Counted from the first letter of the stretch, positions 23,739 through 29,066 are shown. The stretch: DNA of 64,000 nt from Longimicrobiales bacterium (GCA_965219445.1 CBDCNQ010000003.1:256001-320000), one strand, 5' to 3'. Notes: a model not told the origin generated them from the letters alone. Made by a program: numbers and translations.

Positions 23739-24074
23739 TCAGGGGGTGTGTGGTGGGGCCCTGGATTTCGTGCGGACGATACGGCGGAACTCGACCGGGA
23801 TATCGTGAGGGATCGAGACGGCCTCGCCCGGCGTAGGCGGAAACACCTGCAACGGAATCGATGAGTCCGTGGACCAGCCTTGTTTTCCGAACTGGATACA
23901 GAGGGTGTGGTCGTGGTGGGCGTGTGTGCACGCCTCGTGGTGCCCAGAGGCGATTACGGTTTCCGACCCCAGCAGTTCTCGATCCAGTGACGGGATGATC
24001 GCGCCCAGAGCGACCATCCAGACCGCCAAACCGGCATTGAAACGATCGCTCATGCGCCTTCTCATCCACAGCAT
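23739..24074 (-). CDS. His/Cys-rich upstream ORF with C-terminal RAPP motif (putative metal-responsive arrest peptide; alternative starts 24065/24053)
   Basis: Hydrophobic N-terminus, GHHEACTHAHHDHTLC, ends KSRAPPHTP*; first gene of the metal operon. Confidence 0.65.
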   Translation of the reverse strand: MLWMRRRMSDRFNAGLAVWMVALGAIIPSLDRELLGSETVIASGHHEACTHAHHDHTLCIQFGKQGWSTDSSIPLQVFPPTPGEAVSIPHDIPVEFRRIVRTKSRAPPHTP

Positions 24075-24081
24075 GCGTACA

Positions 24082-24110
24082 ACCTTAGGCTCAGCCCTAC
24101 AGGGTGTCAA
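24082..24110 (-). promoter_or_regulatory. Sigma70-type promoter for the RAPP uORF and metal operon
   Basis: Minus strand TTGACA (24110-24105)-N17-TAAGGT (24087-24082); predicted +1 close to the ATG at 24074. Confidence 0.55.
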
Positions 24111-24300
24111 TCGGCCTCGTCCCCCAGCGAGGGCTTGCGGAGCTAGGATCAAAGGCATCATAGGGGCATGGCGACCGCTACCGGTACCGATCAGCAGCTA
24201 AGCAGCCCGAAGACGAAGAGGCGTTCTCCTCCGGGAGCGGGTGCGCGTTCATCATTATTCGCGCAAGCAAGCAACCCAACCCGTCCTACCCAAGAGGAGG

Positions 24301-25362
24301 ATGCCCATGGAGAGGTATATCGGACTCGACGCACACGCGTCGAGCTGCACGCTGGGGATTGTAGGCCCCAGCGGCAAGCGCTTGGGCTCGCAGGTGGTGG
24401 AGACGAACGCGCGGGCGCTGATCGAGGTGCTGCGAGGGATTCCGAGGAACCGGCACTTATGCCTGGAAGAAGGGACGCTGTCGGGGTGGCTGTACGAGGT
24501 GCTGAAGCCGCACGTGGAGGAGCTGACGGTGGCGGGGGTCGGCAAGAGCCGGGGCCCGAAGACCGACAAGCTGGACGCGTTTGCCCTGGCGGAGAAGCTG
24601 CGGATCGGATCACTGGAGACGACGGTCTACAAGAACCGGGGCCAGTTCAGGCGGCTGGGGGAACGGGCGAAGAGCTACGACTTCTTGGTCGGCGACACGG
24701 TGCGGGTGAAGAACCGGCTCAAGAGCGTGCTGCGCTCGAGAGGAGTGGCCTACGGCGCGGGGCGCTCGGTCTACTTAAAGCGCGACCGGGAGGAGTGGTT
24801 GGCCAAGCTGCCGGAAGCGAGCAGGACGACGGCCGGGTTGCTGTACGAGGAGCACGACGCACTCGTGGCATTGAGGGCGAAGGCCGAGAAGGCGTTGCTG
24901 GCGGAAGCACGCAAGCATCGAGAGTGGCATGTGCTGAAGACGTGCCCGGGTCTGGGTCCGATCCGGACGGCGGAGCTCCTGCCGGTGGTGGTGACGCCGT
25001 ACCGGTTCCAGAGCCGGAGCAGGTTCTGGGCGTACTGCGGACTGGGCGTCGTGATGCGGAGCTCGTCGGACTGGGTGCGGGGTCCGGGTGGGCGGTGGGT
25101 AAGGGAACCGGTACAGCAGACGCGGGGGCTGAATCGGAACTTCAACCACACGCTGAAGCGTGTGTTCAAGGGCGCAGCGACGACGGTGATCGGTCGGGCC
25201 GAGGACGAGCCCTTGTACCGCCACTACGAGCGACTCCTGGAGGGGGGCACGAAGCCGAATCTGGCGAAGCTGACGATCGCGCGTCAGCTCGCCTCGATCG
25301 TGCTAGCGGTGTGGCGCACGGGCGAAGCGTACGACCCCAAGAGACTGGAAGCGACGGAGTAA
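24301..25362 (+). CDS. IS110-family DEDD transposase/recombinase
   Basis: YIGLDAH, CLEEG, KTDKLDA (DEDD), PGLGP, YCGL....RSS serine region, ARQL; AGGAGG RBS. Confidence 0.92.
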   Translation: MPMERYIGLDAHASSCTLGIVGPSGKRLGSQVVETNARALIEVLRGIPRNRHLCLEEGTLSGWLYEVLKPHVEELTVAGVGKSRGPKTDKLDAFALAEKLRIGSLETTVYKNRGQFRRLGERAKSYDFLVGDTVRVKNRLKSVLRSRGVAYGAGRSVYLKRDREEWLAKLPEASRTTAGLLYEEHDALVALRAKAEKALLAEARKHREWHVLKTCPGLGPIRTAELLPVVVTPYRFQSRSRFWAYCGLGVVMRSSSDWVRGPGGRWVREPVQQTRGLNRNFNHTLKRVFKGAATTVIGRAEDEPLYRHYERLLEGGTKPNLAKLTIARQLASIVLAVWRTGEAYDPKRLEATE

Positions 25363-25439
25363 ACCGGGCCGGGATCGGCGAGCGTGGGGTCGAAAGCGGT
25401 CACAACATGGGGTCCGACGAAACGGAAGCGAACCGGTTA

Positions 25440-25575
25440 CAGGGGACAGCATCCATACACACCGTGGGCCGGGGCAGAGAGCCCAAGCCCCCACTCAAAG
25501 GCTATGCACCCCTGGAGAGCCGAACGAAGCGATGGGCCACAGAGTCCCAGATAGAAGGATGGTTCCCGCTCCAGA
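25440..25575 (+). ncRNA. Putative bridge/seekRNA core of the IS110-family element (true ends unknown)
   Basis: Two stem-internal loop-stem modules; loops contain TACACACC and TCAAAGG (target matches) and ATAGAAGG (donor match). Confidence 0.75.
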
Positions 25576-25847
25576 GCGGAGAACGCGACGGCTGTGAACG
25601 TCTTCCGGACTGCGATGCGGACCCTGCGAGCGCACCCCTCCCCACCCTGAGTCGTCGACCGGGCAATCCAAACCATGCGGACGCCGACGGTCAAAAAATG
25701 AGCCGACGGCGCGTGGGGAAGGTGCGTCTTGACCGCCAGCCCCATAGAAGGGTGTGTAAAAAAAGAGGCGACGTACCTTTCCGCTAGGTAGTAAGAAGTT
25801 AACCAGCGAATCCCGGGTGAGCGCCCGGGGGAAAGGAACGATGCCTC

Positions 25848-27092
25848 GTGAGGAAGAATATGGTGGGACCCGAGAGTGAGTCCAGCACGCCGACGTGGGA
25901 GTGCTTGGAAGCGCTGGTTCGTGAGAAGGCCCAGGAGATGGTCCAGCGGATTCTGGAGGAGGAAGTGACGGAGTTGCTCGGCCGGGAGAAGTCGGAGCGG
26001 AAGACGGTCGTAGACCCGGCGCCAGGCTACCGCAACGGCTACGGCAAGGCTCGGCGGCTGGCGATGAGCTCGGGCACGATCATGCTCCGACGGCCCCGGG
26101 TTCGAGGCATTGAGGAGCGGTTCGAGAGTCGGGTGTTGCCGTTGTTCGCACGACGGACGAAGGAGGTGGGTGCTCTGCTTCCGGAGCTGTATCTGCACGG
26201 GCTGGCGGAGGGAGACTTCGAGCTGGCGATGCGGGGCCTGCTGGGCGAGGGGGCCCCGTTGTCGAAGTCTTCGATTTGGCGGCTGCGGGCGGGATGGACA
26301 AGGAAATTCGAGGAATGGTCGAAGCGCTCGCTGGCCGACCGTGAGGTCGTCTACGTCTGGGCGGACGGGATCTACGTGAAGGCGGGGCTCGAGCGGGACA
26401 AGGCAGCGCTGCTGGTGGTTCTCGGTGCGATGCGAGATGGTACGAAGGAGGTGTTGGCCCTGAGATCGGGCTACCGAGAGTCGGTCGAGTCCTGGTCCGA
26501 GGTGTTGCGGGATCTGAAGGCACGCGGCATCGAGGCGCCCCGGCTTTTGATGGCGGACGGCAACGCGGCGATCTGGGGCGCAGTACGGCAGGTATGGCCT
26601 GAGGCGGGCGAGCAACGGTGCTGGAACCACAAGATGAGGAACGTGCTGGACCGGCTGCCTCAGCGGGAGCAGAGCGAGGCGAAGGACCTTCTCAGGACCG
26701 TGGTCTACGCACCGAGGCGGTCCGAGGCGCTGAAGGCCCGTGAGGCGTTCGCCAGGCGCTACAGACCGTGGTATCCGAAGGCGGTGGATGTACTCGAGGA
26801 CGACTGGGAGCGGATGGTGGCGTTCTACGACTTCCCCGAGGACCACTGGAAGCATCTACGCACGACGAACGTGGTCGAGAGCCCCTTTGCCGCAGTACGG
26901 CTCAGGACAACGGCGGCGAAGCGCTTCAAGCGGGTCGAGAGCGCTACGGCGCTGATCTGGAAGCTGCTCTTGGTGGCGGAGAAGCGCTTCAGAAGGCTCG
27001 ACGCTCCTCACCTCCTCAAGGACGTATTTGAAGGAAGAAAGTTCGAAGACGGAAAGCCCGTCTCAACCCAACAGCGGAAAAACGCCGCCTGA
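25848..27092 (+). CDS. IS256-family (mutator) DDE transposase
   Basis: YRNGY, LYLHGL, VWADGIY, ESVESW, ADG, QRCWNHKMRN, RTTNVVES. Confidence 0.95.
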   Translation: MRKNMVGPESESSTPTWECLEALVREKAQEMVQRILEEEVTELLGREKSERKTVVDPAPGYRNGYGKARRLAMSSGTIMLRRPRVRGIEERFESRVLPLFARRTKEVGALLPELYLHGLAEGDFELAMRGLLGEGAPLSKSSIWRLRAGWTRKFEEWSKRSLADREVVYVWADGIYVKAGLERDKAALLVVLGAMRDGTKEVLALRSGYRESVESWSEVLRDLKARGIEAPRLLMADGNAAIWGAVRQVWPEAGEQRCWNHKMRNVLDRLPQREQSEAKDLLRTVVYAPRRSEALKAREAFARRYRPWYPKAVDVLEDDWERMVAFYDFPEDHWKHLRTTNVVESPFAAVRLRTTAAKRFKRVESATALIWKLLLVAEKRFRRLDAPHLLKDVFEGRKFEDGKPVSTQQRKNAA

Positions 27093-27198
27093 AACATTTA
27101 CACACCTATTGACCCAACCTCGGGCTTGCGAACGCGATGGGTCTGCACAGAGGTTGTGTTCCCTCACGAGCAGGCTACCGAGAACCAGGAGTCGATCG

Positions 27199-28452
27199 AT
27201 GGACAACATCTCAAGACGTGCGATGTTAGGAGCCGCGGGAGGGCTGATCGCAGGGGGCCTGCTGAAGACTCAGGCCGATGCACTCACAGTGGGGGAGGCA
27301 GCCACCGGCCTGCAAACCGCACCGGCGGATCCCACGAAGATGCTCGGTGCGCCAACCAGCGTCCTCGGCCAACGGGCACCGGCGGAACAGCCCCGTCGCG
27401 TCATGGGCAGCCCGGCGACGACAGCATCCTCCAGAACCCCGATCGAGCAACTTCGGGGCATCATCACTCCGGCGGATCTCCACTTTGAGCGACACCACGC
27501 CGGCGTTCCAGCCATCGATCGGGATCGTTACGAACTCTTGATCCATGGGATGGTGGATCGGCCGATGACATTCACGCTCGACGACCTGATGCGCTTTCCC
27601 TCCGAGTCTCGGATTTGTTTCGTGGAATGCTCCGGGAACGGCGGCGCCGCCTATAACCGGAACGCCGCTCGGGAACGCACGCCCAGCCAGATCGATGGCC
27701 TGTTCAGTACGAGCGAATGGACCGGTGTGGCTCTGACCACTCTTCTGCGTGAAGTGGGCGTCAGCCGGGAGGCGAGTTGGTTGCTGGCGGAGGGTGGGGA
27801 TGCGGCACTCATGTCCCGCAGCATCCCGGTAGAGAAGGCTCTCGACGACGCCATGATCGCGTACGGACAGAACGGCGAGGCGATCCGTCCGGAGCAGGGC
27901 TTTCCCGCGCGGCTGCTGCTTCCCGGCTGGGAGGGCAACTCCCAAGTCAAATGGATCCGCCGCCTCGAGGCGTCCGACCGGCCCTCGATGACGCGCGACG
28001 AAACCTCCAAGTACACGGACCCCCTCGCCGACGGGACGGCGCGACAGTTCAGCCTGGTTATGGATGCGAAGTCGACCATCACGTTTCCCGCCTTCCCATT
28101 TGTACTTCCGGAGCGGGGCTGGTGGGAGATCAGCGGACTCGCGTGGAGCGGACGGGGCCGCATCGCTCGTGTGGAGGTGACGACGGACGGAGGGCGCACG
28201 TGGGTGCCCGCTCAACTTCAGGATCCGGTGCTCTCGAAGTGCGCCACGCGCTTCCGGCACATCTGGAACTGGGACGGCGGAGAGGCTCTTCTCATGAGCC
28301 GCGCGATCGACGAGACCGGCTACGTGCAGCCGGATCTGGAGACACAGATAGCGGCCCGAGGTGAGGGCAGCTCGTACCACTACAACACGATCCGGCCGTG
28401 GAAGATCGAAGCCGATGGGCGCGTGTTCTTCGCACAAGGAGGGGCGCAATGA
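27199..28452 (+). CDS. soxC: Sulfite oxidase-family molybdoprotein, SoxC-like, Tat-exported
   Basis: SRRAML Tat; GIITP..LHFERHH.G, ECSGN, YGQNGE.IRPEQGFP.RL..PGWEG, GLAWSGRG, SRAIDETGYVQP. Confidence 0.85.
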   Translation: MDNISRRAMLGAAGGLIAGGLLKTQADALTVGEAATGLQTAPADPTKMLGAPTSVLGQRAPAEQPRRVMGSPATTASSRTPIEQLRGIITPADLHFERHHAGVPAIDRDRYELLIHGMVDRPMTFTLDDLMRFPSESRICFVECSGNGGAAYNRNAARERTPSQIDGLFSTSEWTGVALTTLLREVGVSREASWLLAEGGDAALMSRSIPVEKALDDAMIAYGQNGEAIRPEQGFPARLLLPGWEGNSQVKWIRRLEASDRPSMTRDETSKYTDPLADGTARQFSLVMDAKSTITFPAFPFVLPERGWWEISGLAWSGRGRIARVEVTTDGGRTWVPAQLQDPVLSKCATRFRHIWNWDGGEALLMSRAIDETGYVQPDLETQIAARGEGSSYHYNTIRPWKIEADGRVFFAQGGAQ

Positions 28453-29066
28453 GCCGGCGGAGCCGTGCCGGGGCCTTTTCCGGCCTGTTGGCGACAACCC
28501 TCTCGTTATACGGATGCGTGCCGGACGCGCCGAGCGGAGAGACCAGCACCGTGGTGTCAGGTACCACGGAGTGGCCAGGCTCTTTCGCCATCGGCCGAGA
28601 CGCCACCCCAGCCGAGATCGCAGAGCTGAACATCGACTTCGGACCGGATGGAGCAGACGCTCCACCGGGGAGTGGCTCAGTCGCCGAGGGCAAGGTGGTC
28701 TACGACAGAAACTGCATCGTCTGCCACGGCCTCACGGGGCGAGAGGGTCCGAACGCTCAGCTCGTCGGCCGCGAGCCTCGTGACGGGTTTCCGTTCGGCG
28801 AAACCCGAGGCATCGTCAAGACGGTCGGAAACTACTGGCCCTACGCCACGACCGTGTTCGATTACGTGAACCGCACGATGCCACTCTCGTCCCCCGGGTC
28901 GCTCACGGCCGATGAAGTGTACGCGGTCTCGGCGTATATCCTCTTTCTCAATGAGATCATCCCGGAGAACGCGGTCATGAATGCCGAGACCCTACCAGCG
29001 GTGGTCATGCCCGCCCGGGACCGATTCGTGCCGGACGATCGCGTGGGTGGGCCGGAGGTCAGGTAA
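28449..29066 (+). CDS. soxD: SoxD-like monoheme cytochrome c (possible lipoprotein)
   Basis: PPGSGSVAEG, CIVCHG, TVGNYWPYATT.FDY..R.MP, EVYAV; overlaps the soxC stop. Confidence 0.85.
   Translation: MSRRSRAGAFSGLLATTLSLYGCVPDAPSGETSTVVSGTTEWPGSFAIGRDATPAEIAELNIDFGPDGADAPPGSGSVAEGKVVYDRNCIVCHGLTGREGPNAQLVGREPRDGFPFGETRGIVKTVGNYWPYATTVFDYVNRTMPLSSPGSLTADEVYAVSAYILFLNEIIPENAVMNAETLPAVVMPARDRFVPDDRVGGPEVR

Follow-up and report, generated by a model that had tools for sequence, protein, structure and literature searches.

An IS1111-type element sits at one base of the left inverted repeat of IS256 elements in a Longimicrobiales bacterium, very probably placed there by a guide RNA

The 64,000-nucleotide stretch analysed here (the window; Longimicrobiales bacterium, GCA_965219445.1, CBDCNQ010000003.1:256001-320000) carries two nested insertion sequences (IS): an IS256-family element and, inside its left terminal inverted repeat (IR), an IS110-family element of IS1111 type. 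The inner element is very probably placed at this single base by its recombinase together with a predicted guide RNA, which would disable that end of its host. Its insertion is specific for site and orientation, uses an AG core, goes with guides that match and co-vary with the target, and has taken place independently in divergent hosts.

In the genome of the window (G000; 4.56 Mb, five contigs), 22 full copies of the IS110-family element (98-100% identity) and two further copies with an intact left junction make 24 insertions, and 23 of these lie at the same base, and in the same orientation, of an IS256 left IR; the sole off-site insertion is at ACTCAA-AG-GTGTG. The intact left-end target of the element reads GATCAA-AG-GGTGTGTA. 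Counted from the side of the host, 23 of the 28 IS256 left ends in this genome are filled and five are empty, while none of its 30 matches to the right IR, which differs by two bases in the 14-base window, is filled. Sixty related genomes were compared, of which six matched at E 1e-40, one of those at 99%. Five genomes (G007 and G061-G064) hold the element at ≥95% identity, and there 14 of 16 left junctions fall in an IS256 left IR; the other two are L039, in a right-IR tip and with changed guides, and L179, off target at TCAAG-AG-GTGTG. The preliminary description of this DNA, which was made from the sequence alone, had proposed a specialist for IS256 ends, and for this lineage the proposal can be refined to the left IR. 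It had also suggested that the flanks of homologues be examined for IS256 ends: close relatives do sit there, but most relatives at 55-85% identity occupy unrelated sites of the type GGAT-AG-GAAATCCAA, and an IS256 gene adjoins only one of 80 metagenome loci. This locus, L214, has a recombinase 69% identical to that of the window and lies at the same base of an IS256 element that is 73% identical.

At the locus itself the 9-bp direct repeat GGGCTTGCG flanks both transposases at 24131-24139 and 27122-27130, as had been reported (per-position chance about 1e-5). Contigs of three of four public runs connect 24130 directly to 27122, with nine letters in common; these joins are the locus before IS256 arrived, so the duplication is real. 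Deletion of 24156-25751 in silico gives GAGCTAGGATCAAAGGGTGTGTAAA, identical at 20 of 25 positions to the reverse complement of 27097-27121, which bears out the claim that the IS256 left IR is split by the IS110-family element. The left end so predicted was also found exact in uninterrupted IS256 copies, 45 in G062, five in G064 and one in G007. IS256 thus came first, making the 9-bp duplication, and the IS110-family element second. The restored end stands, but AAGG is not the shared core: a 4-bp AAGG duplication at the element ends is ruled out by the junctions of relatives (the slash marks the junction), namely right junctions AAG/AGTGTG in L037, L038, L040 and L042, AAT-AG/GCATC in L039 and many left junctions GGAT-AG/GCATC. 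These narrow the shared core to the dinucleotide AG, and the element therefore spans 24153-25748 (equivalently 24155-25750). The composite is intergenic and breaks no identifiable gene. Its parts are as follows.

24131-24139, plus strand: left 9-bp IS256 target duplication, from the sequence and from the empty site in three of four runs
24140-24152, plus strand: outer 13 bp of the IS256 left IR, severed by the IS110-family element; the 3' target guide matches its terminal TCAA
24153-25748, plus strand: IS110-family, IS1111-type element, 1,596 bp, with the AG core (24153-24154) counted at the left; extent from the 22 full copies, core from junctions
24160-24173, plus strand: left sub-terminal inverted repeat, set 7 bp in from the end
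24307-25362, plus strand: DEDD recombinase, 351 aa
25438-25580, plus strand: predicted bridge/seek RNA core, located in the 3' non-coding region and bearing two internal loops
25456-25463, plus strand: 5' target guide TACACACC, complementary at 8 of 8 positions to the IR sequence on the right side of the core
25493-25502, plus strand: 3' target guide ACTCAA-AG-GC
25531-25534, plus strand: candidate 5' donor guide GATG, complement of CATC at the element left end; short and weakly supported
25551-25557, plus strand: 3' donor guide ATAGA-AG, equal to the element right end and core
25729-25734, plus strand: TTGACC, a predicted -35 box
25734-25745, plus strand: right sub-terminal inverted repeat, set 3 bp in from the end
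25749-25760, plus strand: AG core followed by the inner portion of the IS256 left IR
25848-27092, plus strand: IS256-family DDE transposase, 414 aa, intact
27097-27121, plus strand: IS256 right IR, uninterrupted
27122-27130, plus strand: right 9-bp target duplication

The 3' non-coding region folds with two internal loops, and a consensus fold of 29 relatives has the same shape, with stems conserved; Rfam gave no matches up to E 1 across 24000-27300. Both target matches are held by the first loop, TACACACC and then ACTCAA-AG (25493-25500), where TCAA is matched to the left flank (four of six bases) and is followed by the AG core. The complement of the top strand (25456-25463) precedes the match to the bottom strand (25493-25502), which is the IS1111 order, with the top-strand complement on the 5' side in the RNA (available part of PMC11187229). 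The GC that follows the guide core equals the donor bases following the core and is present in 40 of 43 distinct guide sets; by analogy with the IS621 model, this pair is predicted to be the handshake bases. The second loop contains ATAGA-AG, the right end of the element; in L045 and the L071-L095 group, loop sequence and right end have changed together. A non-coding RNA with target and donor matches, a trait of the IS110 family, therefore appears to be encoded here.

The match between guides and flanks was assessed over 158 loci, in 102 of which the target loop could be parsed (42 of these with a left and 55 with a right junction). With one locus per distinct guide, and with the right flank scored as the best of two registers for real and shuffled pairs alike, guides match their own left flanks at 67 of 90 bases (15 distinct guides; shuffled mean 38) and their own right flanks at 165 of 232 bases (29 guides; shuffled mean 105). 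None of 20,000 shuffles reached the real score, which is to be taken as support and not as an exact probability, because related elements are not independent. Both off-target insertions, the one in G000 and L179, also match the guides.

The guide for IS256 appears to have been acquired more than once. On a tree of 57 recombinases it occurs in the clade of the window and again in L213/L214, both embedded among relatives whose guides differ, and a single origin on the protein tree is rejected (p-AU 4.5e-46, from 25 of the 57 proteins, six rows against 19, on a quick tree and with the group defined by guide sequence). The L214 and L215 proteins are 94.5% identical, and most of the difference between their RNA cores falls in the two guides and the intervening hairpin. 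One guide in two lineages is read most simply as independent reprogramming, and exchange of short guide tracts between lineages may be an alternative. Two loci show other combinations of guide and site: L039:2345-3950 (G064) is a 95%-identical element with both guides changed and unrelated DNA on its right, and L213 combines IS256-type guides with the GGAT kind of left flank seen in its relatives, as though the RNA of another copy had moved it or it had been reprogrammed in place.

No exact empty target was found on either strand of the 4.56 Mb of G000, and all five of its empty left ends are changed within the bases read by the guides. Three of these empty copies belong to an IS256 family identical over 1,370 bp and differ only in two to three bases left of the core, where one base was lost in one, gained in another and replaced in the third. 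Each lesion can be read as the left part of the target followed by the last one or two bases of the element, and the three look like scars of imprecise element loss. The gained-base lesion is also present in contigs of two of the four runs (one study), which are otherwise identical and stop 28 letters beyond. The earlier suggestion that the host is released by precise excision is therefore unsupported, as an exact empty target is missing from the whole assembly and three empty copies are scarred; rejected with it is precise excision as the source of the empty copies in G000. In G061 all five ends with an AG core are filled and all ten core-changed ends (eight AT, two TA) are empty, the TA core being the sequence of the right IR. 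The IS256 bodies of this genome differ by at most 36 bases, excepting one divergent and probably interrupted copy, and of seven AT copies that could be scored, five are flanked by an 8-9 bp duplication of their own, so the AT variant likely still transposes. G063 has two filled left ends and one changed.

Several observations weigh against placement by a guide RNA that fills matching ends. In the consensus fold only two of 31 pairs show changes on both sides, the 5' donor guide has only four bases, and the right-hand guide is found in two registers (13 of 20 good matches shifted by one base, seven unshifted). On the right of the core, both off-target insertions are short of one G and would need a one-base slip, and the G000 assembly contains no donor circle junction. 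Among relatives, G007 has six filled and three empty left ends, one of these exact. In three public runs, 4-6 contigs preserve an intact left end. Another relative, G062, carries 45 exact empty ends and a single apparently intact copy, its frame unbroken and its guides unchanged, so the filling of matching ends is not automatic. The GGTGAGTA variant is also found in G064, whose single element carries different guides, and one orthologous flank is empty with an AA core in G007 and filled with an irregular junction in G000. Of the 45 IS256 copies in G062, 16 bodies were retrieved and 13 scored; 12 of the 13 are within one base of the commonest form, and the copies appear to be a recent burst. 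G064 itself, the genome of L039, has five exact empty left ends.

It is rather unlikely, though by no means negligible, that the targeting is real and the altered empty sites are nonetheless neutral IS256 polymorphisms or assembly errors, unlinked to selection or element loss. The G064 variant and the AA-core flank would both suit such an explanation, as would the facts that one lesion is a one-base loss within a run of A and that variant copies are clonal, so that their counts are not independent; a comparison of exact empty sites between groups of genomes (1/19 vs 50/52, Fisher test) was set aside as evidence on the grounds of clonality and of a grouping that depends on copy number. It sits less well with three otherwise identical copies that are each changed differently and each readable as a junction, with the recurrence of the insertion lesion in two runs as the only difference, and with the division in G061 between filled AG cores and empty changed ones. 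A two-element arms race can be put forward tentatively, as a possibility short of an even chance: an RNA-guided element independently reprogrammed at least twice onto the same IS256 end would sweep and freeze each burst, and IS256 would escape by one-base core changes, by right-end sequence copied to the left or by loss scars, the escapees still transposing.

It is very improbable that a single insertion was followed by spread of the 3-kb composite through IS256 transposition, with specificity reflecting no more than inheritance. Filled copies are indeed the majority (23 against 5 empty), the tip still carries the outer 13 bp of the IR, and seven filled G000 copies keep their own 8-9 bp duplication around both genes; but these seven all differ in IS110 haplotype, L214 has a distant recombinase at the same base of a distant IS256 and the guides spell the insertion site. 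The host IS256 copies in G000 range from about 80% to 100% identity to that of the window, and of the 22 IS110 copies a single pair is identical, its two members lying in hosts 88.9% and 100% identical to the IS256 of the window, i.e. 11% apart. Across all 231 pairs the IS110 copies differ by a median of 11 and a maximum of 26 substitutions, and 16 IS256 copies are 100% identical. Host divergence and haplotype differences together indicate independent insertions into IS256 ends and not one composite copied. Mosaic haplotypes show recombination among the IS110 copies, which could blur haplotypes, and occasional composite moves may have occurred. Two haplotypes, differing by about 2%, are combined in the 22 mosaic copies.

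That the site is picked by protein-DNA contacts, or by docking on end-bound IS256 transposase, with an incidental match in the non-coding region, is hardly credible: the target is by nature protein-binding and a group II intron landed 3 bp away in one copy, but the other 12 intron copies lie outside IS256 ends, the right IR, so similar in sequence, is unused in G000, and relatives with 94% identical proteins and other guides sit at unrelated sites that match those guides (L214 vs L215 and L219).

For placement by recombinase and guide RNA, a course of events can be proposed by analogy with IS621, ISEc11 and CazIS110-1. The element would leave as a circle, the joining of its ends forming a junction promoter TTGACC-17-CATCAT; such a circle would put TTGACC (25729-25734) 17 bp from CATCAT (24156-24161). 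Recombinase and RNA would be expressed from the circle, strand exchange at the AG core would lead into the left IR, and insertion would be favoured over excision. The outer 13 bp would then be parted from the inner IR by 1.6 kb, disabling the host end. From the copy patterns, IS256 would multiply first, the IS110-family element would then fill every matching left end, and the ends left empty would be changed-site copies, some of them arising via imprecise element loss. The IS256 transposase requires both intact ends, and insertion would accordingly be expected to immobilise the host. According to the available parts of the respective papers, ISEc11 and CazIS110-1 form circles without regenerating the target (PMC11187229; 10.1101/2025.10.25.684509; 10.64898/2026.08.14.744561), and IS621 makes both circle and regenerated target, with excision much weaker than insertion (PMC11208160, PMC11208158, PMC13626964). 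The present data are better explained by loss that is rare and, in some cases at least, imprecise than by a routine and precise release.

The recombinase passes the cut-offs of PF01548 (39.7 bits; cut-off 29) and PF02371 (32.4 bits; cut-off 21.3), and NF033542 spans its full length at E 2.8e-32 and 112 bits, under the cut-off of 140. Its start codon, first placed at 24301, is likely 24307, because the ATG at 24301 is destroyed by T>C at 24302 in 12 of 22 copies. Acidic residues D8, E54/E55, D87 and D90 are present, and S253 aligns to the catalytic serine loop of IS621; a PDB sequence search returned IS621 at E 0.023, one further chain at E 0.13 and nothing else. Residues 245-254 read GLGVVMRSSS, which retains the serine of the IS1111 C-terminal motif GL-P----S(t)G, replaces its proline and glycine and so departs from the motif. 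The sub-terminal repeats pair over 12 bases with two single-base bulges and leave extensions of 7 bp at the left and 3 bp at the right; the IS1111 convention, in the available part of PMC11187229, is perfect or near-perfect sub-terminal repeats of 11-13 bp with 7-bp left and 3-bp right extensions. The non-coding flanks of the recombinase gene are about 390 bp on the 3' side vs about 150 bp on the 5' side, a long 3' region as in the IS1111 group, and a downstream non-coding region also occurs in some IS110-group elements (same part of PMC11187229). One site, one orientation and no duplication beyond the short AG core, in 23 of 24 insertions, are traits of the IS110 family. The IS1111-type anatomy first described is supported, with the 3' region and the guide order as in that group; the label is IS1111-type and not proven member, because the C-terminal motif deviates. 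Five of the 22 copies have a one-base loss near 25335 that alters the last protein residues. Tandem duplications of the last 490-510 bp, the bridge-RNA region, occur at G000:C5:1611138-1613245 and L035:3918-4838, and the joining of the right end to an internal AG both times suggests recombinase-made products.

The host transposase is assigned by PF00872 (E 8e-59) and NF033543 (295 bits; cut-off 150). Elements of the IS256 family have imperfect terminal inverted repeats and make an 8-9 bp target duplication; here the IRs agree at 20 of 25 positions, the duplication is 9 bp and 10 of 13 scored G062 copies have one of 8-9 bp. The 28 left ends in G000 are less regular, with nine duplications matching their own right flank, ten matching another locus and nine matching none. 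The cross-locus matches include a three-way cycle, whereas in G062 10 of 13 match their own flank, and the swapped flanks reflect either rearrangement between copies or assembly joins. One filled insertion site is common to two genomes (G000:C2:603203 and L036 in G062), and IS256 ends in several genomes repeatedly have flanks of the AAACCCGG type, which suggests hot spots for IS256. The intron mentioned above, a 1,900-bp group II intron with a reverse-transcriptase frame (G000:C4:1169767-1171666, minus strand), shares its IS256 left IR with an IS110 copy, 3 bp to the right of it; with 13 near-identical copies in G000, the other 12 after GTG/GTT at unrelated sites and several behind hairpins, it was ruled out as a second IS256 specialist (1/13 copies in an IS256 end). 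In the window, the IS256 element lies about 70 bp upstream of a molybdopterin oxidoreductase gene (PF00174, PF03404), with a likely cytochrome c also downstream (27202-29066), which we take to be a SoxCD-like pair.

The habit of entering another mobile element at a fixed position is already known, from IS4321/IS5075 in Tn21-family repeats and from ISEc21 in IS3 transposase genes, and IS256 ends are an added target class. Partridge and Hall in 2003 reportedly described insertion of IS4321/IS5075, of the IS1111 group, in the inverted repeats at the termini of Tn21-family transposons. The present element is similarly of IS1111 type and occupies a single position in the terminal inverted repeat of another transposon, but IS4321/IS5075 enter Tn21-family (Tn3) transposons, whose repeat has 38 bp, and here the host is an IS256-family IS, entered by this lineage at the left repeat only. 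The remaining comparisons draw on the available parts of PMC11187229 and of the IS621 papers (PMC11208160, PMC11208158, PMC13626964). ISEc11, ISKpn4 and ISPa11 (PMC11187229) share the long 3' non-coding region, the 7-bp and 3-bp extensions and the guide order, but they are directed to a short linear site, to attC and to REP in place of the IS256 left IR, and the bulged sub-terminal repeats and the GLGVVMRSSS sequence set the present element apart from them. Natural reprogramming between close relatives recalls the ISEc11/ISXne4 pair (PMC11187229). ISEc21, of the IS110 group, likewise targets a conserved sequence in another IS family, but its insertions lie within the transposase coding sequence of IS3-family members, and its own non-coding region is upstream (PMC11187229). 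With IS621 the element has in common a two-loop RNA, a 2-base core (CT, which is AG on the other strand), a candidate handshake and DEDD plus serine residues; unlike it, IS621 has its RNA at the left end and targets REP, and the likeness in sequence is slight (E 0.023). No publication naming IS256 ends was found in the literature on IS110/IS1111 targets, in a search that left ISfinder and most subscription journals outside, so that absence from print does not follow. IS256 is unmentioned in the available text part and supplements of PMC11187229 and in the available main text of PMC11208160 and 10.64898/2026.08.14.744561.

The element and its host provide a well-defined natural guide-target pair on a new target class, the ends of IS256. 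Relatives with 94% identical proteins and both target guides replaced bear on the open question of how IS110 guides are reprogrammed in nature. Furthermore, genomes in the states before (45 empty ends, one copy), after (23 filled, no exact empty end) and resistant (10 core-changed empty ends) make up a test system. If insertion does freeze IS256, an RNA-guided IS would act as a brake on the bursts of another IS family, with escape routes that could be tested by single-base changes.

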